NCBI GenBank assembly: GCA_964467655.1
Contig: CAYXSN010000003.1
Location: forward strand, 34,714-98,713
Direction: 5' to 3'
DNA: 64,000 nt
Origin: an uncultured Candidatus Saccharimonadales bacterium
Lineage (GTDB): Bacteria; Patescibacteriota; Saccharimonadia; UBA4664
The notes below the pieces were generated by a model. That model was not told the origin of the DNA and searched no databases. It saw only the letters and a program-made list of their open reading frames with translations. The position numbers and the translations under genes were made by a program. This document shows, in pieces, positions 29,460 through 61,083 of this stretch. The number at the start of each line of letters is the position of its first letter. Within the stretch, counting starts at the first letter, position 1.

Positions 29460-29510
29460 ATGAGGGAAGTAAATTGCTTACCTGCTTATTGTACGTGCTC
29501 CCTCCTATCT

Positions 29511-44039: not shown

Positions 44040-44145
44040 ACCTGAAAACCTTGCTTTTCTCCTAAAATTTCTACTATAATAATGCAAAGACGTTCCTTAC
44101 GCCTACTAGTTTGTAGCCTAAATAATTTTTTGGAGAACCCCCGCC

Positions 44146-44652: not shown

Positions 44653-45096
44653 TCAGCCGGTACTCTTAGCCAAGGCGCTAATCACGAACTGGACCAGGGC
44701 AAACGAGATAACAGCTACCACGATACCAATGACGGCGTAAAGGATAGTGTTTTTAGCCTGCTCAACATTGCTCTTCTCACCCTGAGAGATAACGTAGCGC
44801 AAACCGCCGATGATCAGGAAGATGACTGATACGGCACCTACCAGGAACACTAAAGTGTTGGCCACCGTCTGGAAGACGCCGCCTTCGGCGAACAGGTTGT
44901 TGCTCGTACCGTTAGCCTTGGCACAACTGGCACCCGAGTTCAATGGGTCTGCCGAATCGAAGCCGTCAGAACAAGCGGCATACGCCGGGGCGCTCACAGC
45001 CACTGCTGCCGCTACCGTGCCAAACCCGAAGCCAAAGACTAGGGCCAGAGCCTGCAGCGACAACGCTGTTTTCTGGGTTAATGACATGATACTCAT
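44653..45096 (-). CDS. VirB2/TrbC-like pilin-family protein, paralog 1 (signal peptide plus two transmembrane helices)
   Basis: Signal peptide, two Cys residues, then the conserved core LIIGGLRYVISQGE...AKNTILYAVIGIVVA shared with the three downstream paralogs. Confidence 0.6.
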   Translation of the reverse strand: MSIMSLTQKTALSLQALALVFGFGFGTVAAAVAVSAPAYAACSDGFDSADPLNSGASCAKANGTSNNLFAEGGVFQTVANTLVFLVGAVSVIFLIIGGLRYVISQGEKSNVEQAKNTILYAVIGIVVAVISFALVQFVISALAKSTG

Positions 45097-45174
45097 CGAC
45101 AGGTTGTCTCCTTACTATCGTTATGATATTCCAAGTTGGTCTTAGCGTAGCATATGCACAAGCGTAAGCGCAAA

Positions 45175-45498
45175 CTAACCGGCAATGGCTTGGGTCACAA
45201 ACTGAATAATGGCGTAGGCCACGATCGACACCACCACACCAACCACTGCATACAGGATCGTATTCTTAGCTTTGCCGACAGCCCCGGTATCACCTTGAGA
45301 TAACACGTACCGCAAGCCGCCGATAATAATCATAATCACCGACACACTACCCACCACAAACACCAAAATGTTGGCAATGTTAGCGATAATGTTTGATACC
45401 GACAGGTTCGTATTGCAAGCCGTGCCACAGGCGTTTTGAGCACTCTGCCCGATGATGTCTGATGCGTTCGCTAGCATAAAGCTTAAATTGTGTTCCAT
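45175..45498 (-). CDS. VirB2/TrbC-like pilin-family protein, paralog 2
   Basis: IIIGGLRYVLSQGDTGAVGKAKNTILYAVVGVVVS core. 107 aa. Confidence 0.6.
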   Translation of the reverse strand: MEHNLSFMLANASDIIGQSAQNACGTACNTNLSVSNIIANIANILVFVVGSVSVIMIIIGGLRYVLSQGDTGAVGKAKNTILYAVVGVVVSIVAYAIIQFVTQAIAG

Positions 45499-45522
45499 GA
45501 TAATCCTCGTTTCCTTGATACA

Positions 45523-45837
45523 TTAACCAGAATAAAAATCAAACCCGTCGCCAACGTTATGGGTTATAAACCACACAATCATATAAGCCGATGCCGCCAA
45601 TACAATGCCAACTACGGCGTACAAAATGGTGTTCTTGGCCGCCTTAGCTTTGCTGGGGTCGCCTTCAGAAAGAGTAAACTGCACACCCCCATACAATAGA
45701 GCTATCAACGCCAAGCCTCCGATAAGCCCCATGAGCATAAGAGTAAGATTGCTCAGACCACCGCCGATAGTATTTACATCTGTCGGCAAACCAACTTCAT
45801 CAGAGGAAATAGTGGCAGCCAGTTTCAACAAGTTCAT
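45523..45837 (-). CDS. VirB2/TrbC-like pilin-family protein, paralog 3
   Basis: LLYGGVQFTLSEGDPSKAKAAKNTILYAVVGIVLA core. 104 aa. Confidence 0.55.
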   Translation of the reverse strand: MNLLKLAATISSDEVGLPTDVNTIGGGLSNLTLMLMGLIGGLALIALLYGGVQFTLSEGDPSKAKAAKNTILYAVVGIVLAASAYMIVWFITHNVGDGFDFYSG

Positions 45838-46211
45838 CCGGCAATGCCTTTCGTCACAAAATCAACCACTGCATAGGCACCGATCAAGAGCACCAAACCG
45901 ATCACCAGATTGGTCAGAATGTCTTTGGCCCGCTTCACTCGACCGGGATCGCCCATAGAAGTTACATAATATATTGCCGCCACGATGATCATAATGACTG
46001 CCAGCGCCCCTGAAAGGGCAATCAGAATCCTCAAGAGATTGCCCACCAAAACAAAAGCATCCGACACCGCCTTCAGATGGACATTACCTGAGGCATCACA
46101 GTTCAAACCGTCCCATAAACTGGGCAGGCCACCGGTTGTAGTGCCGCACGCTCCGACGGCTTCATCTGCTGGCAGTGCCATAGGCCTCATTATAGGAAGG
46201 GGCGATAGCAA
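45834..46211 (-). CDS. VirB2/TrbC-like pilin-family protein, paralog 4
   Basis: AAIYYVTSMGDPGRVKRAKDILTNLVIGLVLL core, two Cys in the N-terminal region. Overlaps paralog 3 by 4 bp. Confidence 0.55.
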   Translation of the reverse strand: MLSPLPIMRPMALPADEAVGACGTTTGGLPSLWDGLNCDASGNVHLKAVSDAFVLVGNLLRILIALSGALAVIMIIVAAIYYVTSMGDPGRVKRAKDILTNLVIGLVLLIGAYAVVDFVTKGIAG

Positions 46212-46241
46212 AAGTCAAAAAGCTCATGCTACAATAAGCTC

Positions 46242-49200
46242 ATGAAGTCGAGGTGGACTCTCATTGCGCTTATGGCGTGGGCCATTGTGGCACCAGCGCT
46301 CGTTGTTGTTATGCGTCCAGAAACCGCTCAAGCGGGAACACCAGCCTCCATCTTGCCGACCACATGTAACTGGACCAATACCACAACAATTACATGTAGT
46401 GGGTATCCTCAAGATGCCAGTCTAACTGTCACCTTTACACCCGACACGAGAAATCCATCAAACCCTCAACGCAGCTACAATGGCGGTACTGTCGGTACGC
46501 CAGGCGATGGAGGCACATACCAGTCTATTGAAAACGTCAGCGCCAACGGTACCAGTGGCCAATACACCGTCGATGGAACATCGCTCGGAGCCATCACGAT
46601 TGGTAATCAGGCAGCCTCAGGCCGGCCGGTCAACGCCGTCACGCCTGCCGATGCCAATGATGGTGCCGCCGATCCCGACACGGCCGTCAAATGTGACGCC
46701 GGCAAAGGCTTCACGTGGCTCATTTGCGGCACCATCGAGTGGGCCCTCAATGTGATCGATTGGATCAGAAACACCGTGCTCATCCCCATGCTCCAGCAAA
46801 AACCGTTCGACGAAGCTTCACCAGATATCGAAGCCCTCAAAAGCGTCTGGGCGGGCATGCGCAACATCGCCAGCATCGTTCTCATCCTGCTCTTCTTGCT
46901 TATTATCTTTGGGACGGCCATTGGCTACGACAACTACACCATCAAGAAAACCCTGCCCCGCCTAGTAGCCGGCGCCATCCTCATGCCATTGTCCTGGTAC
47001 ATCTGCGTCTTGCTGGTTGACCTCGGCAACATCCTAGGTGTCGGGCTCAAGGATTTAACGGCCCCCTTCATCCCTACACCGATCATTGATTTTAATTCAC
47101 CGATTTCCGAAGCTGTCTACAGCGTCGGTGGTGGTATTTTGCTCGGTGTCACTGGCTTTACCGCCTACACTGGCATGCTCTGGCCGGTATTGCTAGGCAT
47201 GGTCGTTGGCTTGGCCGGCGCCTTTCTCACCCTGGTACTGCGCAACATCTTGATTCTCGTCTTAACGGCCATTAGCCCTTTGGCAATGCTCGCCTACATA
47301 TTGCCCAATACCAAGAAATTCTATGACATGTGGCTGAGCAATTTCCTGCGCTTGATCCTCATGTTCCCTTTTATTATCTTGTTATTCCAAGCTGGCCGCC
47401 TATTTGCCGCCATCGCCGGAGCTGGCACCAATCCTATAAACACAATCTTTGCTCTTGTCGGACTGATGCTACCACTATTCTTAGTACCTTGGAGCTTTAA
47501 GACAGCTGGTCAAGCGTTGTCATTCGGTAGAGGCTACATCGATAAAGCTACTGGCATGGGCAAGCGGTACGGTTCAGACAAAATTGGCAACGCGATTAAG
47601 CGTCAGAGAGACAAAACCCGTGAAGCCAACAAAGCTCTTCGCCAGCATAACGCTATCCAGCGAGCAAAAGACATCGACAAAGAGGCCCCCACCAACCTCG
47701 GAGGTAAACTATCCAATAACGTCCGTCAACGAGTCGCCATGAAAAAAGCCGGGCATGGAGGCTTCCTTGGTGGCAAGGGTAATGTACTGCAGCAGCAAAA
47801 GTTTGAATCAGCGTACAGTGAAGCCGCCGCCACACAAGGCAAGATCGAGGCCGCCAAACTGGCTGGCGCTACCGGCACTAGCGAAACACACAAACAGCGC
47901 ATCGAAGCCGAAACCGCCATGGCACTCAAAGGCATTACCGACGGCCGGGCCAATCGTGCAGGATTCATGCAAGCTGTCGGCGAAGCCAATGGAGCCGAAC
48001 TTCCAGACAAAATGATCAGCTTCGCCCAGGCTAGTTACGCCGCCGGCACCGAATCCAGCCGTAAGAGCAATGCCAAGCTCCTCGGCACAGGAACCGGCGT
48101 TCAAGCCGCTGCCGCTGCGGGCGGTTTAGCTTCAACGGGGGCAATCGTCGCAGACGCCAGAGAAACCCAGATTGATAGCCTCAGTGACGAAAAAGGCCAG
48201 GTGGAAGGCCGCCTGATTGGTCAAAGGCACCTTGAGGACGTTGAACTCCAACGAACTGGCGTTAATCCGGCCACGGCAACGACGGCCCAAAGAGAAGCAG
48301 TCCAAAATAGGTTGCAACGCTATCGCCAAACCGATGCCCGCGTCAAAGCACGAGATACTGTACTTGAAGAAGGCGGGACCAAACGTCAGAGCCAAGCCGA
48401 TTTTACAACTCATGGATACCAAGATGTTGAGGAAGTTGAGGGTTCCGCTGCCCTCGAGCAACGTAGTAAGCTATCTACCACTCGCCAAGTCCGCCGCCAA
48501 CGCGTGGCCATCCAGGGTACAGCCGAGGGTGGCATGAGCGACGCAGATATTGAAATGGCGGCCAGTCGTGAAGCTCGCGAGAGCATTGGCGCCCAGGTCA
48601 TGAAGCAAAGGGTAGGCAACGAGACTGAGAGAGCCGACTTGGCTTCAGGTGACGCTACCCGTCGACCAACCCTCACCAACTCACTGATTGCCGCCCGAGG
48701 CCGGGCCGAAGAAAGCGCTTCCGCTGAGAGCGCCCAACGCACGGCCTACGTCAGATCTGCTCTTGGATACGAAAGCGAAAAACCATCTCGGCCATCGCTC
48801 GAAGAACGTATCCAAGATGCCTCTTTCAAAGCCACAACAGACCAGCGCACCAAAGACCTATCAGTCGGTGAGCGTCTCAGCGAAATCAGCAAGGCCGAAG
48901 ACCGGGTCCTTTTGAGCCAAAAAATCGATCCGGCTACCGCCTCAGCTGGTCAACGAGCCGATGCCAGGGCGAGCATTAGTGGCAAAATTGCCATCCAGGG
49001 CTCAGGGGAAGCCGGTTACAAAATGCGCATGGACATCGCCAAAGCCCGCGGCGAAGTCGAGGGCTTCGAAAAAGGCGTTAAGCAGCTCCAAATCGAAGAA
49101 ACTGCCAAGAACCTGCGCGAGAAAGCCATCGACGCCCATCTGGCTGCCAACACCGGCGCCACCAGAGCCGAAGCCGAAGAGGCTGTCGACAGCAATCCGG

Positions 49201-50633
49201 CCAACGATTTCAAGCGCGAGGCCGAACACAACGTTGAAGCTCTAGCCGCCGGCGCTCCGGCCCATCCCGATACTGTCACCTCGGACCAGGCCAGCCGCAT
49301 GTACCACGACGCTGGCGCCGAAAGCGCCTACACCTCAGCTGCCCAAGCCCAAGCCAATTCCATCGGCCAAGCCGTCGGTAAGGGACAGTCGGTCACAGCT
49401 GCGGTTGCTAACCGTGCGTCGACTAACCTCCTAGAGCTCGCCCGCGCCCACGGAGCAGCTCGTGGCATCACGAATGATGACCAAGCCATGGAGTCGTTCC
49501 TTGATGAACAAGTTCGCCTGACAGGCAGTGGCACGCCTGGTGTAGCCGCCGACCGCGAACAAGCCCGCCAGGCTTTACTCACGCAAATGGCCGCACAGGC
49601 TCAATCGGAAGTCATTTCTGCCGCTACGTTGGCAGGCATCGATAGCGGTGTCCGCAGTGAGGCAGCGGCCCAAGGACAACTTATCTCACAGGAAGAATCC
49701 TACAATTCGCCGACTAAATCCACAGCAGCTGATCAGCTAGAAATGGCTCGAAGAGACGCCAGTACAAACCTGGCCAGCAAAGAAGGAACCGACCAAGCCC
49801 GTTCACGCCAGCCCAAACTGGATTACTCGACAACAGTTGAGTCAACCAGGAAAGAAGCTCTTGACAAGTTCTTTGCTCAGAGAGTCCAAGAATCGGGCCG
49901 CAAATTCGTGATAGATGCCAACACCGGCAAACCAACTCCCGACCGAATCGATACTGCAGCGCCAACCAAAGATAACCAAGCCTCACTTCGTAAAATGGCA
50001 GAAGAAGCCTTCGACACGGGCGACTACGAGACCTTCGCAGCCTGCACCAATGCTTTGGGTCAAAACGGCAGTGGACGTGATATCGTCAGGGAGATTATTG
50101 AATCGAAGTTCGGATACGATGATAAGAACCGTATCAATCCTACCATCGCTGATCAGATCCGCAAAACAGCCAAAGCTAACGGCAACCCTGAATTCGACCC
50201 CGAATCATTCTTTAGTGCTGCAGTTTCGCGAATCAACAAAGATAAAGCACCATACTTATTTAAACCACGGGACGCCGCTTTTGGTAAACTACCTTCAAAT
50301 GAATTTGCGGCTCTCGATGACCGCGGCAAAATGCAGTACTTCCAGTGGGCAAGTGGCAAAGTTGGTACGACCGATGAAGCAAAGATCAGAGGTGAAGCCG
50401 TTTCCAATATGCACGAATCGGTCACCAACAAATCTCTCAAGCCCAATCCGGGCAACGCTGATTTTGATGCCATGTACCGCTACCTCTATGAGATTGATCC
50501 CACTACTAAGGCGGTTATAGGGCCAAATGCAGATAATATGAAGGCTTTTGAGGCACAATTTGGAGGGAATACTGTCAAATTCGGCCAAGCTATCGCCGAT
50601 ATTGAACGCGGCTTTAAATCACATAATGCCTAA
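46242..50633 (+). CDS. VirB6/TrbL/TraG-like polytopic membrane protein with a ~1000-aa Ala/Glu/Arg/Gln-rich C-terminal extension
   Basis: 1463 aa. N-terminal signal peptide, a Cys-containing ectodomain (~170 aa), 6-7 transmembrane helices (~aa 200-460), then a long charged low-complexity tail. Transcribed divergently from the pilin genes. Confidence 0.55.
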   Translation: MKSRWTLIALMAWAIVAPALVVVMRPETAQAGTPASILPTTCNWTNTTTITCSGYPQDASLTVTFTPDTRNPSNPQRSYNGGTVGTPGDGGTYQSIENVSANGTSGQYTVDGTSLGAITIGNQAASGRPVNAVTPADANDGAADPDTAVKCDAGKGFTWLICGTIEWALNVIDWIRNTVLIPMLQQKPFDEASPDIEALKSVWAGMRNIASIVLILLFLLIIFGTAIGYDNYTIKKTLPRLVAGAILMPLSWYICVLLVDLGNILGVGLKDLTAPFIPTPIIDFNSPISEAVYSVGGGILLGVTGFTAYTGMLWPVLLGMVVGLAGAFLTLVLRNILILVLTAISPLAMLAYILPNTKKFYDMWLSNFLRLILMFPFIILLFQAGRLFAAIAGAGTNPINTIFALVGLMLPLFLVPWSFKTAGQALSFGRGYIDKATGMGKRYGSDKIGNAIKRQRDKTREANKALRQHNAIQRAKDIDKEAPTNLGGKLSNNVRQRVAMKKAGHGGFLGGKGNVLQQQKFESAYSEAAATQGKIEAAKLAGATGTSETHKQRIEAETAMALKGITDGRANRAGFMQAVGEANGAELPDKMISFAQASYAAGTESSRKSNAKLLGTGTGVQAAAAAGGLASTGAIVADARETQIDSLSDEKGQVEGRLIGQRHLEDVELQRTGVNPATATTAQREAVQNRLQRYRQTDARVKARDTVLEEGGTKRQSQADFTTHGYQDVEEVEGSAALEQRSKLSTTRQVRRQRVAIQGTAEGGMSDADIEMAASREARESIGAQVMKQRVGNETERADLASGDATRRPTLTNSLIAARGRAEESASAESAQRTAYVRSALGYESEKPSRPSLEERIQDASFKATTDQRTKDLSVGERLSEISKAEDRVLLSQKIDPATASAGQRADARASISGKIAIQGSGEAGYKMRMDIAKARGEVEGFEKGVKQLQIEETAKNLREKAIDAHLAANTGATRAEAEEAVDSNPANDFKREAEHNVEALAAGAPAHPDTVTSDQASRMYHDAGAESAYTSAAQAQANSIGQAVGKGQSVTAAVANRASTNLLELARAHGAARGITNDDQAMESFLDEQVRLTGSGTPGVAADREQARQALLTQMAAQAQSEVISAATLAGIDSGVRSEAAAQGQLISQEESYNSPTKSTAADQLEMARRDASTNLASKEGTDQARSRQPKLDYSTTVESTRKEALDKFFAQRVQESGRKFVIDANTGKPTPDRIDTAAPTKDNQASLRKMAEEAFDTGDYETFAACTNALGQNGSGRDIVREIIESKFGYDDKNRINPTIADQIRKTAKANGNPEFDPESFFSAAVSRINKDKAPYLFKPRDAAFGKLPSNEFAALDDRGKMQYFQWASGKVGTTDEAKIRGEAVSNMHESVTNKSLKPNPGNADFDAMYRYLYEIDPTTKAVIGPNADNMKAFEAQFGGNTVKFGQAIADIERGFKSHNA

Positions 50634-50735
50634 TCAAAGGCTAGTCTAACCTTCCCTCAAGCCCCAATTTAGCGTAAGCTTTATATATCAACTGTGAGGG
50701 ATGATAGGGGATAGGCACGCCCCAGCACACGTGAT

Positions 50736-51560
50736 ATGGGACAATACACCGTACCGCAAAACGTTGAAGCCGAAGACCATATCTTAGGCCCGCTAACGTT
50801 CAGGCAGTTCATCTACATGATGATCGGCCTGGGCTGGGTGATTATTACCTTCGCCTTGTTCCGCAAACTGATTGCGGCCTTCATTGTCATTGGTGTGCCA
50901 CCGACCATTTTGTTCATGCTGCTAGCTTTCTTCAGACGCGACGGCCAGGACTTCGAGCATTTACTGGTAGCTGTGGTCGGCTTTTTTGCCGCTCCCCGCC
51001 AGCGCTTGTGGATCAAAGAAGAAACCATCGAAACCTTCCACATCACGCCCACAGCCAAACAGGCCGAAATCACCCAACGTAACCCACAGCTAGTCATCAG
51101 TGAACTCGAGAAGTTGGCCGTGCTCATTGACTCCCGGGGCTGGAACCTGCCGACTGCCCCCGAGGTCACGCCTCAGCTCATCATGCCCAGCACACCGGCC
51201 TCGGCCCGCATCGTCCAGCCAGACAATACTCCCTCAAACATCACCGCTCCCCACACCGACATGCTCGACCTCCAAAACAGCCCGCTGGCCCAAAACCTCT
51301 CGGTGCTGCTCCAACAGTCAGCCGACCATGTCAAGCAGTCGGCGGTCAGCGGCATGACACCGGGTAGTGAACTACCCGCACCGACTCATTTTGCCACGCC
51401 CGTCAAAAGCATAAGCGGCGTGACAGGCCTCGCCCAAGACGATATACTACGGTTAGCTACCCAGAGTGAGGGAATGAGCATTGCCTCTGTTGCGGCCCAA
51501 GCCACGCGCTTGAGCCCAGACAGTGGCGCAAATGTGGAGCCAGTTGCCAATGCCAGCTAA
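50736..51560 (+). CDS. Small membrane protein (two N-terminal transmembrane helices; VirB3/PrgI-like position) with a Pro/Ser-rich tail
   Basis: FIYMMIGLGWVIITFALF and FIVIGVPPTILFMLLAFF helices lie directly upstream of the VirB4 ORFs. The VirB3 assignment rests on position only. Confidence 0.4.
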   Translation: MGQYTVPQNVEAEDHILGPLTFRQFIYMMIGLGWVIITFALFRKLIAAFIVIGVPPTILFMLLAFFRRDGQDFEHLLVAVVGFFAAPRQRLWIKEETIETFHITPTAKQAEITQRNPQLVISELEKLAVLIDSRGWNLPTAPEVTPQLIMPSTPASARIVQPDNTPSNITAPHTDMLDLQNSPLAQNLSVLLQQSADHVKQSAVSGMTPGSELPAPTHFATPVKSISGVTGLAQDDILRLATQSEGMSIASVAAQATRLSPDSGANVEPVANAS

Positions 51561-52284: not shown

Positions 52285-54173
52285 TGGGACTTTTTGGCCC
52301 ACCCAAACCCAAAGTTGATCCTGGGGCTCTGGCTGCCTACCAGCAAGCTATGGAGCAACGCGAGGCCGAGCTCATTTACCGCCAAGGCATCATCACCATG
52401 CGCGACCTCATTGCGCCTTCGTCATTGGAGATCGACGCCAATTACCTGAGGATTGGCAAACGCTATTGCAAGACGCTCTACGTGTATGGCTACCCCCGCC
52501 AGGTGTTCACCGGTTGGCTGTCGCCAATTATCAACCTCGATGAAATCATCGACATCTCACTTTACATCTACCCCGTGGAATCGCGCGTCGTTCTCGACAA
52601 CTTACGCAAAAAAGTCACCCAGATGGAAGCTTCGTATGCCATCAACGAAGAGAAAGGCAAAGTGCGCGACCCAGGCCTTGAAGCCGCGCTCCAGGACGCC
52701 GAAGAGCTCAGGGACAAGCTCCAAGTTGGCGAAGAGCGGTTCTTCAGGTTTGGTATGTATCTCACGATGTACGCCGATTCCATTGACGCCATGACCGATC
52801 TCAACCGCAAAATCGAGGGCATTTTCGGCCAGTCGCTGGTGTACACCAAAGCCGCCACCATGCAGATGGAGCAAGGCTTCAACTCCACGAGTCCCTTGGC
52901 CAACGACCAGCTCCAGATCTCGCGCAACATGGACACCGGAGCCCTGTCCACCAGCTTCCCGTTCACTTCAGCTGAACTATCTCGCAACGAAGGCATCCTT
53001 TACGGCCTCAACCGCCACAACAACGGCCTGGTGCTTTTCGACAGGTTCTCGCTCGAAAACGCCAACATGGTGGTATTCGCTAAATCCGGTGCCGGTAAAT
53101 CGTTTTCCATCAAACTTGAAGCCTTGCGCTCTCTCATGATGGGCATCGAAATTATCGTAATTGACCCCGAAAACGAGTACAAAACCCTCTGCGAAGCCGT
53201 TGGCGGCACCTATCTGCGCCTCAGTTTGGCCAGTCAAACTCGCATCAACCCCTTCGACCTGCCGCGAGTATTCGACCAAGATGAAGCCGACAACGCCCTC
53301 CAAGCCAACATTATTACACTGCACGGCCTGTTGCGCCTCATGATCGGTGGCGCCACAGTCTCAAACTCCACCGGCGCCACCAGCGTAACCTCCCTTACTC
53401 CCAGCGAAGACGCCGACCTCGATCTGGCAATCATCAATACCTACGCCCGCGCCGGTATCACCCGCGACCCCCTCACCCACAATGCCACCCCGCCCACCAT
53501 GAACGATCTCTACAATACTCTGGCCTCCATGACGGGCAACGGCCCCGACCTGGCCATGAGGCTACGCAAATTCACCACCGGCACGTTCTCGGGTATTTTT
53601 TCAGAGCAATCAAACGTCGAAATCAACAACCCCTTCCTGGTATTCAACATTCGCGACCTCGAAGACGAACTACGGCCCATCGGCATGTACATCGTGCTCA
53701 ACTACATCTGGAACAAGGTCAAATCAGATCGTCGCAAACGCATCCTAGTAGTCGACGAAGCCTGGCAACTTATGAAGTACGACGACTCAGCCGCCTTCAT
53801 GTTTAGCCTGGCCAAACGGGCCCGCAAATACTTCCTCGGCCTCACCACCATCTCCCAAGACGTCGAGGACTTCTTAAGCAACAAAATGGGCCGGGCCGTG
53901 GTCGCCAACTCATCACTCCAGCTCTTACTCAAGCAAGCCCCTTCAGCCGTCGACATTATTGGCGAAACCTTCAAGCTCACGAACGAAGAAAAAGCCAGGC
54001 TCACCGAATTCCCGGTGGGAGAAGGCTTATTCTTCGCTGGACTCAATCACGTCATCATCAGAGTCCTGGCGTCCGAAACCGAAGCCAGCCTCATTAGCAC
54101 CAATCCAGCCGACAAAGGTCAGGCGCCATCAGCCCCCACTGAAACATCAGCGCCAGCGGAACAAGGAGCATAA
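52284..54173 (+). CDS. virB4: Type IV secretion/conjugation ATPase VirB4 (TrbE/TraE/PrgJ-like), central and C-terminal ATPase region
   Basis: Walker A FAKSGAGKSFSIK and Walker B ILVVDEAWQLM. The VirB4 middle region (LIAPSSLEIDANYLRIGKRYCKTLYVYGYPRQVFTGWL) is also present. 629 aa. Confidence 0.88.
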   Translation: MGLFGPPKPKVDPGALAAYQQAMEQREAELIYRQGIITMRDLIAPSSLEIDANYLRIGKRYCKTLYVYGYPRQVFTGWLSPIINLDEIIDISLYIYPVESRVVLDNLRKKVTQMEASYAINEEKGKVRDPGLEAALQDAEELRDKLQVGEERFFRFGMYLTMYADSIDAMTDLNRKIEGIFGQSLVYTKAATMQMEQGFNSTSPLANDQLQISRNMDTGALSTSFPFTSAELSRNEGILYGLNRHNNGLVLFDRFSLENANMVVFAKSGAGKSFSIKLEALRSLMMGIEIIVIDPENEYKTLCEAVGGTYLRLSLASQTRINPFDLPRVFDQDEADNALQANIITLHGLLRLMIGGATVSNSTGATSVTSLTPSEDADLDLAIINTYARAGITRDPLTHNATPPTMNDLYNTLASMTGNGPDLAMRLRKFTTGTFSGIFSEQSNVEINNPFLVFNIRDLEDELRPIGMYIVLNYIWNKVKSDRRKRILVVDEAWQLMKYDDSAAFMFSLAKRARKYFLGLTTISQDVEDFLSNKMGRAVVANSSLQLLLKQAPSAVDIIGETFKLTNEEKARLTEFPVGEGLFFAGLNHVIIRVLASETEASLISTNPADKGQAPSAPTETSAPAEQGA

Positions 54174-54179
54174 GAGGAA

Positions 54180-57100
54180 ATGGCACTGCGTTCTGCCGCC
54201 GGTCTCAAATCTAGCTCCGGCATGGAGCCACCCCGCCAGACGTTCAAAGATGCTCTGGTAGCCCAGAAAGCTTCAAGTAGCCAGAAAACAACTACCGCCC
54301 AAAAGCCGGTTATGACGCAAATGTCACCGATGGGCGGCAGTCAAACCTCCAAGCCCGACACCATCACTAGACCCCGTAATGAATCAATCAACGAACCCAA
54401 TACGGCGTCCAATACCAGCATCGCACCTTCGTCTCAGGCCGCCGACCTCAAAACCGGAGATAGCAAATTCGATGCCGTCCACGGCGACAACCGCGGTCAG
54501 CAAATGGTCGCCAACGCCGGCACCGCCCGGCCCGAAGCCAATGACGACGCCTGGGCCTCACCCGACGCCACGGCATCCTCCAATGCTGGTGGCCCACCAG
54601 ACTCGGGTGGAAAAGCGGGCGTCATGTCTCCGGGCGCCGATCCAAACCGTGCCAGTCAATCTAGAATACCTGGCAATGATGCCGAGGCCCGAGCCAACTA
54701 CGCCAACAACGTCAGTAACGGCCCGGTCGGCCGCCGGATTGCCGGCAAGACGTTCGATTTTGCCAACCGTCACCGTAAATCGCTGATCTTTGGCGGCGGC
54801 GGCATGGGTATTGTCCTAGCGTTAATCTTTGCCACGCTTGCCTTCTTGCCCCTCAAACTTGAATCATTCATGAATAACGTTATCAGCAACGAAGGCAAGC
54901 GGATGGAGCATTACGCCACGCGGCGCGCCGAGATCATGACCTACCGCTACCTCATGAACGCCGCCAACGGCACTATTGAATCAGACCCTTTGTATACCAG
55001 CTCCAATATCGTCAGGATGATGTGGGGTAACTTCCAGAAAGACAGGTTTATCGAGAAACTCCAGACTTCCAAAGGCATCACAGTGGAAAGGGGTGGCAGC
55101 GCCGGCAGTATCAGATTCACGACCGCCAGTGGCCAAGTAGTGGAAGCGAGTAATCTGAGTCAGCTCATGGACGTCCTCAAAAGCAATCCAGCCGGTACTG
55201 GCATTGAGGCAGAAATTGGCAAGTTCATGGAAAACGAGTACAAATGGTTCCGTATCTTTCAGCGCCGCTCTATCAGATACTACTTAGCCAAAGCTTACGG
55301 TATCAAACGCTGGAGCATCGACAAAAAAGAAGACAAGGTTGACCCGAAGTCCAAGGTACACAGCACCGAAATCCAGGCGCGCGAACTGGCCCTCGATGGA
55401 CCAAATGAAAAAACCATCAATGCCATCGGTTGTGTCGCCGCACCCGAAAACTGCAACGGCGAAGACTCCAATCGCCGCAGTACCGACCCCAATGGCGAAT
55501 CAACAATCGACCCGCCAAATACCACTGGGGGCAATGAAGAAGAGTCCAAAGCTCAGGCCGAAGCCAAAAAAGGTTTGCTTGAGCGCTACCGCAACCTCAA
55601 AACTACTGCCGGCAACAAAATTCTAGCGACCCTCACCGAACTGATTGGTAGTGAAGTGATAGCGAAAGGTATTCTGAAAGCCGTACCCTTCATCGGCTGG
55701 ATCTCGTTTGCGGCCGACATCGACCATTTCATCTGGGGTGGTAGCTGGTCGCAAGTCGGCATCAATCTGCGCGCCTTGCAATACGTAAGCGTCGCCCAAA
55801 CCTGGGCTACCCTCAAAGACCAGATGAAGGCCGATGAGCTGACTGCCAGCCAAATCAATGTGCTTATGCTTATGCTCGACGGCATTGAAAAATCAAACGC
55901 TTTCCAGCGCACCAATTCAGCCAATACCAATGGCGGTGTCACCATCCCGGAAGAAAAACGGGTAGGCAGCGATGGTGCCTTTATCGATCCCGAACCGGCC
56001 GGTCAGGGTATTTGCGGCATTACCTATCCACTGTCAAACGAATACCGGGGCATCCCGGTAAACGGCTTGTCTATTACCAACTACGAACCCTGGACGCTCC
56101 TGTACCGTCGTGTAGTCACAACACCACTGCTGATTGGCGCCGGCAACGTTCACTTTGACCTCTGTACTTTCAGGGCCGTATTCCAGCGTTTTATGGGCGT
56201 CATCATGCTTGGGGTCAAGAACATTCCGGGTGTCGGGCAGTTTATCTCTACATTCCAGACCCTCACTCAGTTTGTTATGCAAACCGAAATCATTCAGCGC
56301 CTCGTCGAGCAGGGCAGCCACTACGTCACGGCCTTCCTCGAACGTGTCTTCGGACTGGTATACAACGGCGAATGGGGGGCGCCACTCGCCAACACCATTG
56401 ACGGTGGCTGGGAAGTAATCACAAATGCCGTCACCCGTGACCACATGGGTGGTAAGGCCATTAGCTATAGCCTCAGCTATGAACAAACCACCCAGTACGC
56501 TCTTGAGGACCAACAGAAACTCAATGCCGAGGGACCCTTTGCTAGTCTGCTCGCTTGGAATACGCCAGGCTCAACCGGCTCTAAACTACTGGCAGCCTTA
56601 CCATCAACCCCATCAGCTCTCGCCAACCGTTTTACCGATCTCGCCAGCAGCCTCTTTTTACACCCCGCCAGTTATTTCAGTAAATTAGCGTACAACTTTA
56701 GTACCGGTAGTCTGGCCGTCGATCCAGCCAGCTTGCGCTCTCCCGCAGGCGTCATGCACATTGGCTTTGATGCTGCCGAGGTCAACGACAGCAACATCTA
56801 CATTGCCGTCAAAGACATCAACGGACCACCAGTCAATGGCGCCTACCCCGGCCAGCCCGACGGCCGCATCGATGAGTACGACTGCATCGAAGGGAGCGGT
56901 AGTGGCGAGAGCTTGCACATAGTCGGTACTACTGACAGGGCCGATGACATCACCAAAACCAACCGCTGCCTCTACGATACCTCAGTGGCCCTACCGCTCT
57001 GCTCCGGCGGCTCCTCCAATGACGACGGGGGACTGGGCCAAGGCGGCGATCCCGGTCCATGTGGCCGTGTCGCTGGCACCTCAGCTACAGGCCAAGCCGG

Positions 57101-57977
57101 CAGCCCGCTCACCGCCAACTGGATGTCCGGCGCCAGCTTCATGCAGGGCGATTACAACGGTACACCCAAGACAACTGGTTTCGGCACGTGGCGTAACAGT
57201 TCACCGGTCACCATTGTGGGCACCTGGTGCGACAAGCCAGGCTGTACCGATGGATCCGCCGCCAATGATTACGACTCATTCAACGGCGCCATGGACATCG
57301 CCATCGGCGGCATCTTCAAACAAAACGGCGAATCCTGGTCGGCCGCCGCCGGCGGAGCCTACAATTCTCGTTGGCAAGGTGCCATCAGCAACATCGCCTC
57401 CCACCGCCAGGGTAAAGGCCTCACATTCATCAGGTTTGCTCACGAAGCCAATATGAACTTCTCAGACTGGAGCGTCATGCCGGGTGAAGAAGCCAACTAC
57501 ATTACTACTTTCTGCAACGTAGCCAACATGGCGCACGCCGCCGGTCTCAAGGTGACCTGGTCGCTCAATGACGGCACACTGGGCGGCGCTGCCGGCCCTG
57601 CCACCATGTATCCCGGTGACGCCTGCGTCGACGTCGTGGGACCCGACACCTACGACTGGGACACGCCTCAGGTATCGGTCGTAAATGGTCAGGTTACCGG
57701 TATCGAATCATGGCGCCAGTTTGCCCTAAGCCACAACAAGCCCCTAGCCTTCCCCGAATGGGGCGCCAACAACACCCAAGGCCAGACCAAAGATAACCCC
57801 GCCTACATCACCGCCATGAACACGTTCATGGCTACCAACGGCGGATCAGGCCCAGGCCAGTTCATCTATGACATCTATTTCAATGAAGACGAGAGTGGCT
57901 ACCGCATCGGATTATGGCCAACCGCCGATGTCCCGCAGATGGCTAACACCTATAAAGCTCTCAAGTGGGGGAATTAA
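54180..57977 (+). CDS. Large single-pass surface protein with a C-terminal glycoside-hydrolase-like (clan GH-A, GH26/GH5-like) TIM-barrel domain
   Basis: 1265 aa. Disordered N-terminal ~210 aa, transmembrane helix GGGGMGIVLALIFATLAFLPL, and a ~1000-aa exodomain. C-terminal FIRFAHEANM (candidate acid/base Glu) and LAFPEWG (candidate nucleophile Glu). Confidence 0.5.
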   Translation: MALRSAAGLKSSSGMEPPRQTFKDALVAQKASSSQKTTTAQKPVMTQMSPMGGSQTSKPDTITRPRNESINEPNTASNTSIAPSSQAADLKTGDSKFDAVHGDNRGQQMVANAGTARPEANDDAWASPDATASSNAGGPPDSGGKAGVMSPGADPNRASQSRIPGNDAEARANYANNVSNGPVGRRIAGKTFDFANRHRKSLIFGGGGMGIVLALIFATLAFLPLKLESFMNNVISNEGKRMEHYATRRAEIMTYRYLMNAANGTIESDPLYTSSNIVRMMWGNFQKDRFIEKLQTSKGITVERGGSAGSIRFTTASGQVVEASNLSQLMDVLKSNPAGTGIEAEIGKFMENEYKWFRIFQRRSIRYYLAKAYGIKRWSIDKKEDKVDPKSKVHSTEIQARELALDGPNEKTINAIGCVAAPENCNGEDSNRRSTDPNGESTIDPPNTTGGNEEESKAQAEAKKGLLERYRNLKTTAGNKILATLTELIGSEVIAKGILKAVPFIGWISFAADIDHFIWGGSWSQVGINLRALQYVSVAQTWATLKDQMKADELTASQINVLMLMLDGIEKSNAFQRTNSANTNGGVTIPEEKRVGSDGAFIDPEPAGQGICGITYPLSNEYRGIPVNGLSITNYEPWTLLYRRVVTTPLLIGAGNVHFDLCTFRAVFQRFMGVIMLGVKNIPGVGQFISTFQTLTQFVMQTEIIQRLVEQGSHYVTAFLERVFGLVYNGEWGAPLANTIDGGWEVITNAVTRDHMGGKAISYSLSYEQTTQYALEDQQKLNAEGPFASLLAWNTPGSTGSKLLAALPSTPSALANRFTDLASSLFLHPASYFSKLAYNFSTGSLAVDPASLRSPAGVMHIGFDAAEVNDSNIYIAVKDINGPPVNGAYPGQPDGRIDEYDCIEGSGSGESLHIVGTTDRADDITKTNRCLYDTSVALPLCSGGSSNDDGGLGQGGDPGPCGRVAGTSATGQAGSPLTANWMSGASFMQGDYNGTPKTTGFGTWRNSSPVTIVGTWCDKPGCTDGSAANDYDSFNGAMDIAIGGIFKQNGESWSAAAGGAYNSRWQGAISNIASHRQGKGLTFIRFAHEANMNFSDWSVMPGEEANYITTFCNVANMAHAAGLKVTWSLNDGTLGGAAGPATMYPGDACVDVVGPDTYDWDTPQVSVVNGQVTGIESWRQFALSHNKPLAFPEWGANNTQGQTKDNPAYITAMNTFMATNGGSGPGQFIYDIYFNEDESGYRIGLWPTADVPQMANTYKALKWGN

Positions 57978-59260
57978 TAACAGCCATGCTCAAGCGTTTT
58001 ACCACCATTCTCGTCCTCGCACTTACAGCACAGCTGGCGTTTGCCCCGACTGCTAAAGCCATTTTCAACTACGACAATAAAGCAGTTACCAAAGAATACA
58101 TCTATTGGGACAACCGGGTGACTGCCGATTGCCCCAGCGCCACCGACCTGTCAGGAAACAGTCCTACCGGCACCGATTCGGCGGCAGCCGCTGCCCGCAA
58201 GAAAGTTATTTGGGATTTTCTTACAGCTCCCGGCCGTCTGACAGCCCCTCAAGCTGCTGGGGTACTGGCCAATATGACAGTTGAAAGTGCCCATACTTTT
58301 GATCCAACGATTGTGCAGGGCGGTACCTATAAAGCCACGCCTGAAGGCGTGAATAACGGTTACGGCATCGTGCAATGGACTCCCGGCACCAAACTACTGA
58401 AATATGCCGACATTGCCGCAAACCCCACGCTCGGAGGCAACCTCACCCGCCAGCTGAACGTCCTATGGGACCAGCTAACCAATGCGAGCTCGCCGTTACC
58501 GGAAAAGGCTGCCGGCGACGCCCTCAAAGCCACCACTACAGCCGAGCAAGCTGCCGTAGCCTTTATGATCGGGTATGAGCGGCCGGCCGACAAGTCACTG
58601 GATGCCCGAGACGGCCGCGCAGCCTTAGCCAACCCCATCCTCGTCGAAATGACCGGCGGCACCAGTGGCACGATTACGCCTCTAACGACCACAAATGGCA
58701 CTCCCGTCACCACATCATCAAGCTGCCCGTCGGCTACATCCCAAGCCAGCGCTAGCATTGATACAGCCCATATGTTTGAGTCATCAGTGAGTATCCAATG
58801 TGCTCCCGGCACAACTGATGCCGGCGTTCAAGACGGCTACCACAATGGTATCATGGTCAAGATCAGGGTCTGCGCCATACCAAACTTTCCATGCACCAAT
58901 GAAGAATGCCAGGAACTCGGCAATGGTCATGCCCTAGTGAACTCCCGAGCCTCTGGCGCAATCCTCAAGATGATTACCGACGCCATAGCTGCCCGTGATC
59001 AAGCAGGTAAGAGTTATCAGATCAACGCGTCATCAACCTTCCGTACTATGGCCCACCAGACAGCCCTCTATAATGCGCCTCACTCCGATCCAGTTGCCAA
59101 ACCCGGCTTCTCCAATCACCAGATGGGCCTAGCGATCGATTTCGGCTTCTGGAAAAATACCAATACCGGACTCTATGATTGGCTCAAAGCCAACGCCTCG
59201 CGATATGGCTACCAGCAACTGCCAAGTGAAGTTTGGCACTGGTCCACCAATGGTGGTTAA
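57965..59260 (+). CDS. Secreted bifunctional cell-wall hydrolase: phage-tail-lysozyme-like domain plus peptidase-M15 (VanY/D-Ala-D-Ala carboxypeptidase-like) domain
   Basis: Signal peptide MLKRFTTILVLALTAQLAFAPTAKA. N-terminal domain ANMTVESAHTFDP...GYGIVQWTPG. C-terminal domain SNHQMGLAIDF (SxHxxGxAxD) plus EVWHW (ExxH). Confidence 0.7.
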   Translation: MGELITAMLKRFTTILVLALTAQLAFAPTAKAIFNYDNKAVTKEYIYWDNRVTADCPSATDLSGNSPTGTDSAAAAARKKVIWDFLTAPGRLTAPQAAGVLANMTVESAHTFDPTIVQGGTYKATPEGVNNGYGIVQWTPGTKLLKYADIAANPTLGGNLTRQLNVLWDQLTNASSPLPEKAAGDALKATTTAEQAAVAFMIGYERPADKSLDARDGRAALANPILVEMTGGTSGTITPLTTTNGTPVTTSSSCPSATSQASASIDTAHMFESSVSIQCAPGTTDAGVQDGYHNGIMVKIRVCAIPNFPCTNEECQELGNGHALVNSRASGAILKMITDAIAARDQAGKSYQINASSTFRTMAHQTALYNAPHSDPVAKPGFSNHQMGLAIDFGFWKNTNTGLYDWLKANASRYGYQQLPSEVWHWSTNGG

Positions 59261-59287
59261 AATAATAACTCAATAGGAAGTACCCCA

Positions 59288-60775
59288 ATGCGCCTAAAAC
59301 TTATCCTCCTAGCCCTCGGCATTACGATACTAGCTGCCAGTGCCAGCCTCTGGAACTATTCAAGGATTCAAATGAGCGTGCCCAACATCTCTGGTGAGTA
59401 CACCATCACCCTAGAGAACCAAGCCGATGGCAAAGCCACCGTCACCAAGACTAGCTCCAAGTCTTTCAGCAAAATCGTCAGCAAAGGCTCCTACCGGGTC
59501 ATTGTGACCCAGGGCCAAAACTCCCGCTTCTTTCTCATTGATACAGCTCCGTTTTTGGCGACCACCAGCGTCACCGCCGAGCTTCAGACCCAGATCGCCC
59601 GCAGTTACATCGGCAACAGCCCCGGGGACTGCTTTTACCTAATCGCCAATGTTGCCCTTTCCAGCACTTGTACCGGTAGTCAGAGCCACATGACGTTACA
59701 CACACCAGCCACGGCCACCCAAGCCAGCTACAACCAGGATTACATCACCATCAGAGGCCGGTTCATGGACAGTCTCGAAACCGCCGGCGGCACAATAGTG
59801 TTGAGCCAGTCCATTGGTGATAGCGGTCCGCTGCTGCATCTGTTTACCGGTAAACTCGAACCCGCCAAATCAACTGAACTTTCAGGTCTGAAAGCCGGTG
59901 TTGAGTATCGCTTAAGCAATTATAAAGCTGGCTTTTTAGTCCATAACTTTGATTTTTCGGACGTCCAGTACTATTCGGCCTTCGGTGCCGCTGCTCAAAG
60001 CGTCACGTTTGAGGCTGCTCAAACCAAAGCATCCAAGCCCTCGGCAGTAGCCACCAACAACCAAGCGACAGCTGTAGCCTATTTCTCTGAGCGTTCCGAA
60101 GAAGACCAAGGCAAAAATATCACTGAAATCGTCTTGTCGACTCCCGGCAAAGCCACCCAGCATTTTACCACCCAAGGCCATATCACCAAACTCATGTTCT
60201 GCTCAACCCAAACTCTGTGCGCCCTCAACAGCTTGGGCAGTAGCCTGCAAGTTTACAAGCTTGAGGACAAGGGGATAGACAACGATTTTGACATCAAAGA
60301 TGTTTCAGATTTCTTACTCTATCAGAACCAGATTGTGGCCGCCCAAGGCAAAAGTGTTTACCGCATTAATCCTGATGACCAATCAGGCTTCCAAGAATAC
60401 AGCTTTGGTGCCTATAACTTCTGCGGCTTCAGCCCCGCACCCAACGGCTACGTACTCTGCATCGCTGGCGCCAAAAACGGCCGGGCGCTCCTGAGACTTG
60501 ATGAAACAGCCGCCATCATCAACTCGGGTGCCATCGACCAGCAGTTAGCAAGCCTAAGTACCAAAACCGACATCATTAACCAGATCAGCGCCTACGGCCG
60601 GTTTATCACGGTAGTCCCCAAAGGTGACCTCATCATGAACTGGACCGCCCGCCGCCTTGAGCCAGACCCCGTAAAACAAGCCACCATCAACGGTCAAATC
60701 AATGCCACCATCAACGAACTTGGTATTGATAGAAGCAAGTACCAGATTTCAATTACCGCACCTCTCGGTGATTAA
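59288..60775 (+). CDS. Secreted hypothetical protein (495 aa) at the distal end of the T4SS-like cluster
   Basis: Signal peptide MRLKLILLALGITILAASASL. Composition looks beta-strand-rich. No known motif. Confidence 0.5.
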   Translation: MRLKLILLALGITILAASASLWNYSRIQMSVPNISGEYTITLENQADGKATVTKTSSKSFSKIVSKGSYRVIVTQGQNSRFFLIDTAPFLATTSVTAELQTQIARSYIGNSPGDCFYLIANVALSSTCTGSQSHMTLHTPATATQASYNQDYITIRGRFMDSLETAGGTIVLSQSIGDSGPLLHLFTGKLEPAKSTELSGLKAGVEYRLSNYKAGFLVHNFDFSDVQYYSAFGAAAQSVTFEAAQTKASKPSAVATNNQATAVAYFSERSEEDQGKNITEIVLSTPGKATQHFTTQGHITKLMFCSTQTLCALNSLGSSLQVYKLEDKGIDNDFDIKDVSDFLLYQNQIVAAQGKSVYRINPDDQSGFQEYSFGAYNFCGFSPAPNGYVLCIAGAKNGRALLRLDETAAIINSGAIDQQLASLSTKTDIINQISAYGRFITVVPKGDLIMNWTARRLEPDPVKQATINGQINATINELGIDRSKYQISITAPLGD

Positions 60776-60786
60776 AACTGACGCCC

Positions 60787-61083
60787 CTAAATCGAGCTGA
60801 TCGTAATCATTACCCTCACGCGCCCCGGCTGGCCAGGTACAGGGGTAGGGGAGCCACTCGTCTTCAAACCAGCCAGAGCCACCAGCTCCAGCTGACGCAT
60901 CCGCAACGCTCCAGCTACAGCCGCACTTGACGTCACGAGTCTTAAAGTTCCCTGGTGCCACTGACGGGCCCTCACTTTACCCGGATACCATTCATCCACC
61001 ACCTTTTGAACCACTTCCAACACATCCTGGCGGTCAAGCCCTAATTGCTGACGCTTGTGTTCAAAATAAGCCGGATCTATCAT
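60787..61083 (-). CDS. DUF721/DciA-like small protein downstream of recF
   Basis: 98 aa in the conserved dnaA-dnaN-recF-DUF721 position. Overlaps the recF stop by 4 bp. The sequence match is weak (KRQQLGL...LVTSSAAVAGALRMRQLEL). Confidence 0.45.
   Translation of the reverse strand: MIDPAYFEHKRQQLGLDRQDVLEVVQKVVDEWYPGKVRARQWHQGTLRLVTSSAAVAGALRMRQLELVALAGLKTSGSPTPVPGQPGRVRVMITISSI

Follow-up and report, generated by a model that had tools for sequence, protein, structure and literature searches.

An origin-proximal type IV secretion system of a Saccharimonadia bacterium and its probable role in host contact

We analyzed a 64-kb stretch of DNA (contig CAYXSN010000003.1; called the window below), which comes from a Saccharimonadia bacterium (Patescibacteria/candidate phyla radiation), and in it a cluster of 11 open reading frames (ORFs) at positions 44653-60775 that encodes a type IV secretion system (T4SS). 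Our reading, to which we give a probability of about 85%, is that the cluster is the vertically inherited, origin-proximal T4SS of the Saccharimonadia, that is, the 'Patescibacteria clade' which stems from the MPF-FATA (mating-pair formation, FATA-type) conjugation machinery of monoderm bacteria. It would be orthologous to SEML1_0006-0019 of Ca. Southlakia epibionticum and would act as a host-contact conduit for epibiotic growth, not in conjugation. The system has already been described, and our conclusions on its components and on its not being mobile repeat published ones (PMC12102498; PMC10633639; FEMS review 2025). The window adds a further orthologous case, which comes from an uncultured lineage with a wastewater metagenome-assembled genome (MAG) as its nearest sequenced relative, and leaves the overall picture unchanged.

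Gene inventory and the conserved core

The cluster is built of two divergent blocks, with four small genes on the minus strand (44653-46211) and seven genes on the plus strand (46242-60775), the latter separated by tiny gaps or overlapping. All ORFs of the cluster are intact, its GC content is the same as in the rest of the window and no tandem repeats were found within it. Transmembrane (TM) helices and signal segments of the proteins were taken from a hydropathy scan. The features are:

44653-45096, minus strand: VirB2-type pilin paralogue 1, 147 amino acids (aa) (PF18895, 36.3 bits)
45175-45498, minus strand: VirB2-type pilin paralogue 2, 107 aa (PF18895, 36.9 bits; two TM helices)
45523-45837, minus strand: VirB2-type pilin paralogue 3, 104 aa (PF18895, 47.2 bits)
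45834-46211, minus strand: VirB2-type pilin paralogue 4, 125 aa as longest ORF (PF18895, 34.4 bits)
46242-50633, plus strand: extended VirB6-like protein, 1463 aa (PF19590 TrbL_3, precomputed; orthologue profile)
50736-51560, plus strand: PrgI/VirB3-like protein with two TM helices, 274 aa (PF12666, 49.7 bits against a cutoff of 27)
51523-52284, plus strand: TrsD-like protein, a detached VirB4 N-terminal domain, 253 aa as longest ORF (NF041427 TrsD, E 9e-9)
52284-54173, plus strand: VirB4 ATPase, 629 aa (NF045971, 358 bits against a cutoff of 325; PF19044, 91 bits)
54180-57977, plus strand: large T4SS-associated surface protein, 1265 aa (TM scan, homologue search, structure model)
57072-57974, plus strand: glycoside hydrolase family 26 (GH26)-like domain of the 1265-aa protein (phmmer against PDB; Glu1089 in AHEAN, Glu1193 in FPEWG)
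57965-59260, plus strand: secreted bifunctional cell-wall hydrolase, 431 aa (PF18013, 86.2 bits; PF02557, 34.8 bits)
59288-60775, plus strand: exported or anchored 495-aa protein, predicted all-beta (N-terminal hydrophobic segment, aa 3-21)

An earlier note, made from the sequence alone, had read here a T4SS-like module of four VirB2/TrbC-like pilins, a giant VirB6/TraG-like membrane protein, a two-TM protein in the VirB3 position, a VirB4 ATPase in two ORFs, a 1265-aa single-pass surface protein, a lysozyme-like/M15 wall hydrolase and a 495-aa secreted protein. Each of these assignments held in searches with profile hidden Markov models, and the genes lie where the note had placed them. Its count of twelve genes is to be corrected to 11, the number to which its own list sums.

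The core of the machine, VirB4, TrsD and PrgI, is very strongly conserved. VirB4 covers positions 185-730 of the profile of the NCBIfam CD1110 family of VirB4-like ATPases (NF045971), and its Walker A (AKSGAGKS, nucleotides (nt) 53088-53102) and Walker B (VVDEAW, nt 53748-53765) motifs are both intact. The TrsD-like protein, 244 aa long in gene calls, aligns to positions 99-232 of the Mycoplasma VirB4 profile and to positions 8-118 of the CD1110 profile, has a precomputed PF26593 (TraC-like) assignment and is 28% identical (E 5e-29) to the product of the gene upstream of VirB4 in Pontibacillus. At the junction of trsD and virB4, which reads GAGGGAGG-N6-TGATG, a Shine-Dalgarno-like motif stands before stop and start codons that overlap by one base. 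VirB4 homologues are 612-660 aa long in all but two cases among the at least 120 matches listed, and TrsD adjoins VirB4 in all fetched loci except two short or truncated ones. Because of the TGATG overlap with its Shine-Dalgarno-like motif, and because of the homologue lengths, the split of VirB4 is, judged by sequence, native and the normal TrsD+VirB4 arrangement of this T4SS lineage; a frameshift or pseudogene origin is ruled out by the same two observations. The two genes appear to be translationally coupled through the overlap. What the earlier note had described as a split VirB4 with intact Walker motifs is correct as to the motifs, and the split itself is the standard two-gene form. According to a literature survey, TrsD is the most abundant T4SS component in Patescibacteria (Quinonero-Coronel 2025; PMC12102498).

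Among the same at least 120 matches listed, VirB4 homologues are 78-98% identical (mostly 80-86%), and every homologue with an organism name belongs to Saccharimonadia/Patescibacteria. VirB4 is conserved above RecF and DnaN (84-86% versus 61-66% and 68-72% in loci L008-L011). In the plasmid database the closest VirB4 is at most 40% identical, with the best plasmid relatives at 39-40%. PrgI has its two TM helices at aa 24-42 and 45-63, followed by a long low-complexity C-terminal tail.

All four pilins lie above the Pfam gathering score of PF18895 (T4SS_pilin; 26.6 bits), at 34.4-47.2 bits, and each has the two-helix hairpin of VirB2. They are divergent, with 29-47% identity to paralogue 1, paralogue 2 being the one at 47%. 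Paralogue 1 has an N-terminal signal-like helix, then a Cys pair and then the two-helix pilin hairpin, with TM segments at aa 16-34, 81-99 and 121-139. Paralogue 3 also matches PF04956 (TrbC) at E 6e-4 and the NCBIfam Mbov_0395 pilin-like family at E 1.7e-9, under the cutoff of that family. A tblastn search with it against the PLSDB plasmids gave no match, so that homology to pilins of Gram-positive plasmids such as PrgF is not directly demonstrable. Paralogue 4, the first gene of the minus-strand array, is called as 115 aa by gene callers on near-identical contigs.

The divergent gap of 30-60 bp between the pilin array and VirB6 contains a promoter-like site, TTGACT-18-TATAAT (46218-46189, minus strand), which is sigma-70-like and agrees with the consensus at 11/12 positions; it is a consensus match only. 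Between the end of the -10 element and the 115-aa start of pilin 4 downstream of it there are ~8 nt, a spacing that suggests a transcript which is leaderless or has a very short leader.

VirB6, the scaffold protein and the wall hydrolases

The probably outward-facing parts of the system evolve fast by exchange of domains or cassettes: the ends of VirB6, the enzymatic C-terminus of the scaffold protein, the hydrolase and the last gene. These parts are therefore a pointer to where host specificity may reside.

The VirB6-like protein has a signal peptide and at least five TM helices. A variable ectodomain (aa ~32-143) is followed by a polytopic TrbL/VirB6-like core (aa ~144-440) and by a hydrophilic C-terminal extension of ~1000 aa, which is low in complexity yet non-repetitive. 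The assignment to VirB6 is weak from this sequence alone (PF04610 only at E 0.017) and is supported by the precomputed PF19590 match, by the fact that 9 out of 33 VirB6 orthologues match PF04610 and by a profile built from the 33 orthologous cores, whose sole match in PDB is TrwI/VirB6 of R388 (E 0.0046). Over the 13.3 kb that lead from PrgI to the window's end, a contig of the same species (L001) has 99.6% nucleotide identity. In the VirB6 gene (L001:2939-7720) the two share 88% identity in the middle, whereas nucleotide similarity could not be detected for the segment that codes for the N-terminal ectodomain (46340-46646) or for the last ~300 codons (49751-50645); the protein has 1463 aa in the window versus 1593 aa in L001. 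The gene thus looks like a strain-level mosaic, with cassette-like recombination at both of its ends.

The 1265-aa protein starts with a low-complexity tail of ~200 aa rich in Ser, Thr, Pro and Asn, which is probably cytoplasmic, and then has a single TM helix (aa 209-227), as expected for the single-pass protein proposed before. A conserved helical ectodomain scaffold follows to about aa 980, and then a C-terminal GH26-like module. An exhaustive HMMER search splits the protein accordingly. The core (aa ~200-980) is found in proteins of ~750-1130 aa, which match in size and architecture the ORF after virB4 in other Saccharimonadia loci, and the C-terminal module (aa ~965-1265) is part of many proteins that are built differently. 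A word-indexed homologue search with the full 1265-aa protein returned three proteins only, in which, as a guess, the low-complexity N-terminus perhaps dominated the selection of candidates. The model of the scaffold core (predicted local distance difference test, pLDDT, 77.8; predicted template modelling score, pTM, 0.84) shows a long TM helix and then a mostly helical ectodomain; the core matched no entry of PDB or BFVD. The scaffold is likely extracellular, since the TM helix has the positively charged segment RHRKS in front of it and the ectodomain contains four nearly invariant Cys residues.

PDB matches of the GH26-like domain in phmmer are Clostridium thermocellum Lic26A (CtLic26A, 2bv9; E 1.6e-4) and Cellulomonas fimi Man26A (CfMan26A; E ~2e-4). 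In the alignment, Glu1089 falls on E109 and Glu1193 on E222 of the 2bv9 chain, two residues that we take to be the acid/base and the nucleophile of CtLic26A. Both glutamates of the domain are invariant in 14 of 14 family members. The catalytic pair therefore appears intact, with Glu1089 in an H-E-x-N motif as putative acid/base and Glu1193 as putative nucleophile. The domain scores 14.1 bits against PF02156 (cutoff 20.2), and its relatives P0141 and P0137, which are 37-44% identical, reach 44 bits.

To see which enzymes stand at this position, the last 400 residues of the ORF after virB4 were scanned for families in 67 loci. A VanY/M15 end was found in 27 of them and M15_4 in a further 6, followed by M23 (10), the EEP nuclease/phosphatase-like Exo_endo_phos (4) and CHAP (2), while GH43 (L047, E 7e-48), Amidase_2, M74, NlpC/P60, C39-like and C70 ends each occur at a single locus. 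Examples of such ends lie at L047:14217-15416, L043:6607-7806, L050:14598-15797 and L058:13884-15083. Most of these C-terminal enzymes of scaffold orthologues are wall hydrolases. As the survey recovers different families, the scaffold seems to be conserved while its enzymatic C-terminus is exchanged between lineages, and the GH26 and GH43 variants are testable enzyme targets.

One possible, and at present tentative, idea is that the large protein is an unrecognised component of the T4SS: a membrane-anchored scaffold of ~750 aa with a novel fold and a swappable enzymatic 'warhead' matched to the chemistry of the host envelope. Together with the cassette ends of VirB6 and the divergent pilins, it might set the host range by cutting an entry port through the host wall.

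The next gene encodes a hydrolase with a lysozyme-like domain (aa 79-219) and an M15/VanY metallopeptidase domain (aa 347-417; motif HQMGLAID). It matches the phi29 gp13 lysozyme (3csr, E 1.5e-8) and VanY-type carboxypeptidases (E ~1e-3) in PDB, and is the VirB1 equivalent of the system. The final gene of the operon, for the 495-aa protein, is lineage-restricted. No Pfam family matched its product, three homologues only were found among 5.8 billion proteins, and a jackhmmer search against all ORFs of the fetched loci found it only in the closest genome (L012). With these three homologues available, the AlphaFold2 model (pLDDT 37) is unusable. The N-terminal hydrophobic segment at aa 3-21 agrees with the secreted protein of the earlier note.

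Chromosomal setting and possible function

Synteny was followed by tblastn and ORF maps in 80 related loci, taken from a scan of one genome per species. The shared plan is made of pilins on the minus strand, VirB6 (sometimes in two copies), PrgI, TrsD, VirB4, a protein of 750-1500 aa, a protein of 400-680 aa and at least one smaller protein, and then recF-dnaN on the opposite strand. In the fetched Saccharimonadia loci whose contig is long enough, VirB6, PrgI, TrsD and VirB4 again follow one another in this order, with recF/dnaN after them; Hsp20/ComF could be detected at the left end of roughly 12-20 loci. The closest complete genome is a 1.32-Mb MAG (isolate Aved_18, CP064960.1, L012). Identity to it is 97% for VirB4, 92% for TrsD, 86% for RecF and 84% for PrgI, versus 64% for the VirB6 core, 42% for the VirB6 extension, 70% for the 495-aa protein, 36-68% (by segment) for the large protein and 37% for the hydrolase. 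In S. epibionticum the order of SEML1_0001-0022 is that of the window read backwards, flanks included, as judged by gene order against Tables S1/S2 of PMC10633639.

To the left of the cluster lie tRNA-Ser(gct), a ComF-type phosphoribosyltransferase gene (43371-44087) and Hsp20. To the right lie a DciA-like gene, recF and dnaN, with dnaA just past the window on a near-identical contig (99.6%). The DciA-like ORF (98 aa, 60787-61083, minus strand; PF05258 at E 6e-4, below cutoff) stands between the T4SS and recF, is kept at the same position in the closest relatives (L008-L013) and probably belongs to the replication gene group and not to the T4SS. Pfam scans show housekeeping genes in the other 44 kb, including GroEL, phosphoglucomutases, valyl-tRNA synthetase, a Mur ligase, FemAB, glucose-6-phosphate isomerase (PGI), TsaD and glycosyltransferases. 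A run of envelope-glycan genes is found at 27837-32476 and 37812-42063; it encodes a PMT_2-like protein, two GT2 glycosyltransferases and a cellulose-synthase-like protein, together with ORFs matching no Pfam family of 468 aa (5 TM helices), 534 aa (soluble) and 637 aa (~10 TM helices).

No relaxase, integrase or type IV coupling protein (T4CP) family was found in Pfam scans of the other ORFs of the window, and RecF is the sole carrier of a Walker A motif outside the cluster among ORFs of at least 90 aa. A search for direct repeats bounding the cluster gave short chance repeats only. The tRNA-Ser gene was considered as an integration site and rejected, as its 3' end points away from the cluster, bounding repeats are missing and tRNA-Ser also flanks the S. 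epibionticum locus. The earlier note had already recognised no coupling protein, relaxase or integrase, had seen the cluster among housekeeping genes and had preferred chromosomal fixation over a mobile element. Our scans agree with all three points: the site and the core order are fixed in relatives, the GC content is that of the flanks, there is no integrase or att-like repeat that would bound an integrative element, and the gene order matches the Saccharibacteria T4SS.

The GC skew is negative over the whole window (1-64000), on genes of both strands. Because of this, and because dnaA lies just beyond the right end, the replication fork travels from right to left through the window. It follows that the 14.5-kb plus-strand T4SS operon (46242-60775) is transcribed head-on to replication, and the pilins, recF and dnaN co-directionally. 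VirB4 is opposite to recF/dnaN in all fetched loci that have both, and in S. epibionticum.

In the R388 structure, VirB2, VirB3, VirB4 and VirB6 without VirD4 and VirB11 are the set that has been linked to pilus biogenesis. The window retains these parts together with TrsD and wall hydrolases, with which conjugative systems build their pilus at the cytoplasmic membrane, but has neither the substrate-recruiting ATPase nor DNA-processing proteins; for this reason we favour a pilus or tube, driven by VirB4, that would cross the wall of the epibiont and touch or penetrate the host. In such a mechanism TrsD and VirB4 would form a membrane engine, docked by PrgI/VirB3 onto the extended VirB6 channel, which would pull the four VirB2-type pilins out of the membrane and build a pilus or tube from them by polymerisation. 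The lysozyme+M15 hydrolase and the membrane-anchored 1265-aa scaffold with its GH26-like end would open the wall of the epibiont itself and probably the host envelope, and the resulting contact conduit to the host bacterium would support epibiotic growth. What we infer from these parts is that a pilus is assembled, that the host envelope is acted upon and that anything is transported. That the T4SS would be essential for epibiotic growth is taken from the literature on a cultured relative of the window organism: transposon sequencing in S. epibionticum ML1 classed all T4SS genes as essential for it except the NTF2-like SEML1_0012 (PMC10633639). According to a FEMS review from 2025, no T4SS before the Saccharibacterial one had been shown to be essential for its own bacterium.

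Several points weigh against this reading. The organism is known as an uncultured MAG only, and the sole hint of a pilus that we met is the mention, in a 2026 preprint on another Patescibacterium, of 'tubular structures that may be T4SS pili'. A distant T4CP is possible beyond the 64 kb, since S. epibionticum is reported to have a non-essential T4CP far from virB4. No VirB8-like protein was recognised in the window, the VirB6 sequence and the GH26 domain are each sub-threshold by themselves, and the hydrolases may act on the epibiont's own wall only.

In the literature the function is called unknown, with effector delivery or uptake of host molecules as the speculations (FEMS review 2025; PNAS perspective 2024). 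Effector export, import of nutrients or nucleic acids, and adhesion alone are possible alternatives. The alternative that survives best, although we find it doubtful, is an effector exporter that injects proteins, either toxins or the variable enzyme domains, into or onto the host, as do the antibacterial T4SS of Xanthomonas or the 89K system of Streptococcus suis. Wang et al. suggest protein export on the ground that coupling and relaxase proteins are lacking (PMC10633639), the swappable C-terminal enzyme of the scaffold resembles polymorphic toxins, and the VirB6 ends are exchanged between strains. Yet T4SSs that translocate effectors normally need a T4CP to recruit their substrates and none lies nearby, the cluster showed no genes that could pair as effector and immunity protein, and the variable domains are mostly ordinary wall hydrolases on a membrane-anchored protein, for which translocation is not required.

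Rather unlikely is an adhesive pilus or anchor which serves host attachment only, with nothing passing through. The set of VirB2, VirB3, VirB4, VirB6 and hydrolases, with substrate-recruiting ATPases missing, would be a pilus-biogenesis subset here as well, and several divergent pilins (29-47% identity) fit surface variation. However, Saccharibacteria are reported to use two type IV pili already for adhesion and motility (10.1101/2024.11.25.624915), a role beyond redundant adhesion is suggested by how strongly VirB4 is conserved and by the fact that the set is essential as a whole, and the extended VirB6 with its hydrophilic domain of ~1000 aa is left unexplained.

We consider it quite improbable that the cluster is a DNA-uptake (competence) machine like the ComB T4SS of Helicobacter pylori, working with the adjacent ComF-like protein. 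The ComF-type gene is a neighbour of the T4SS in the window, in S. epibionticum and in about a dozen of the loci fetched, and the T4SS has been put forward in the field as a route of nucleic-acid uptake. ComB systems, though, are diderm VirB7-10 machines, and VirB7, VirB8, VirB9 and VirB10 families were not found in the cluster. In S. epibionticum, moreover, comEC is reported to be dispensable for growth and the comF neighbour SEML1_0021 to be non-essential while the T4SS is essential, so that the essential role would not be ComEC-dependent transformation; by this analogy ComEC-linked DNA uptake is unlikely as the essential role.

Finally, a conjugative element (an integrative and conjugative element or integrated plasmid), or its decaying remnant, which moves DNA between cells is essentially excluded: VirB4, TrsD, PrgI, VirB6 and the wall hydrolase are homologous to parts of Gram-positive conjugation systems, the nearest plasmid VirB4 (39.7% identical, Embleya, NZ_CP108778.1) adjoins a T4CP and a replication-relaxation protein, and a tRNA-Ser gene lies 1.3 kb left of the cluster, but the lack of a T4CP, relaxase and integrase in the 64 kb, the missing bounding repeats, the direction of the tRNA, the uniform GC content, the intact ORFs, a chromosomal site and core order shared with the fetched related species and S. 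epibionticum, and a VirB4 more strongly conserved than RecF and DnaN all speak against it.

The scaffold with its swappable enzyme end, the VirB6 mosaic and the head-on operon near the origin may be new details; we found no mention of them in the available portions of the published T4SS descriptions. The swappable enzyme end, the mosaic and the conserved head-on orientation are modest leads.

Comparison with known systems

The closest known system is that of S. epibionticum, a member of the same class whose locus is origin-proximal and has neither a T4CP nor a relaxase close by. Wang et al. (2023; PMC10633639) describe an unusual, Gram-positive-like T4SS with essential pilins, in which the coupling protein and relaxase were unrecognised. 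Their locus runs from dnaA, dnaN and recF through SEML1_0004/0005 (small exported proteins of 249 and 211 aa), 0006 (two lysozyme domains and a Cys peptidase), 0007 (1113 aa, with a C-terminal DD-peptidase fold), 0008 (VirB4), 0009, 0010 (PrgI), 0011 (VirB6-like), 0012 (NTF2-like) and 0013 (TrbL/VirB6) to the pilins 0014-0019, followed by Hsp20, ComFC and tRNA-Ser. The window has four pilins versus six and one VirB6 paralogue versus two, has no NTF2-like (VirB8-like) gene, and has one 495-aa gene in place of SEML1_0004 and SEML1_0005. Its hydrolase is of the lysozyme+M15 kind, whereas that of S. epibionticum has two lysozyme-like domains and a Cys peptidase, and its large protein ends in a GH26-like domain, with M15 sitting on the next gene, whereas the large protein of S. 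epibionticum ends in M15. For Patescibacteria as a whole, Quinonero-Coronel 2025 (PMC12102498) describes a distinct VirB4 clade related to MPF-FATA, with TrsD, PrgI, VirB6 and VirB2 arrays, rare relaxases and proximity to dnaA/dnaN, and regards the system as co-opted for a non-conjugative role. Extended VirB6 proteins are discussed in the FEMS review of 2025. A preprint from December 2025 (10.64898/2025.12.18.695078) reports that the VirB2-like PrgF is essential and that such proteins are widespread in Gram-positive conjugative T4SSs, and because of this the pilins of the window are less anomalous than once thought.

The likeness to MPF-FATA systems (Prg/Pcf of pCF10, Trs of pGO1/pSK41, conjugative transposons of Clostridioides) is seen in the homologous VirB4, for which CD1110 is the best NCBIfam model, in the PrgI-type VirB3, the VirB6-like channel, the multi-domain wall hydrolase downstream and the small VirB2-like proteins, and, for pGO1, in the separate TrsD. 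The reference parts are PrgF (pilin-like), PrgH, PrgI, PrgJ and PrgK of pCF10, and TrsC, TrsD, TrsE and TrsG of pGO1/pSK41. Unlike these systems, the window has no T4CP, relaxase, oriT or adhesin, and its locus is chromosomal and vertically inherited. Its pilins form an array of several paralogues, its VirB6 has a giant extension, and its large scaffold protein lacks a homologue there.

The same gene order is found in Pontibacillus sp. ALD_SL1 (Bacillota; L087, NZ_CP062975.1, 351362-361354, on an 898-kb replicon), with two PF18895 pilins, a TrbL-like protein of 779 aa, a TraL/PrgI-like protein of 116 aa, the TrsD homologue mentioned above, a 621-aa VirB4 (38.8% identical) and a 1050-aa hydrolase. 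The annotation shows neither a T4CP nor a relaxase within 12 kb of it, the replicon is typed as non-mobilizable and flagellar genes are adjacent. This may be another non-conjugative relative. It differs in that Pontibacillus is a flagellated genus of Bacillota and not an epibiont, and in that the locus is away from the origin. Homology of the window scaffold to the 1050-aa hydrolase (NlpC/P60+M23) was considered and rejected (hhalign probability 0.3%). The Embleya plasmid mentioned above, from an actinomycete, differs in that its cluster keeps the T4CP and the replication-relaxation protein.

Farther away, the Rvh system of Rickettsiales is likewise a chromosomal, non-conjugative T4SS of an obligately host-dependent bacterium, with an extended VirB6 and duplicated, divergent components. 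It differs in being a diderm P-type machine with VirB7-11 and VirD4 in scattered loci, and its architecture is not homologous. The wall hydrolase has its own parallels. In gp13 of phi29 (lysozyme+M23) an N-terminal lysozyme domain of the same family is followed by a peptidase, and CwlT of ICEBs1 (muramidase+NlpC/P60) is a comparable bifunctional wall hydrolase of a DNA-translocating machine. The peptidase module of the window hydrolase is of the M15/VanY type, unlike the M23 of gp13 or the NlpC/P60 of CwlT, and like gp13 the protein pairs a glycan cutter with a peptide cutter.

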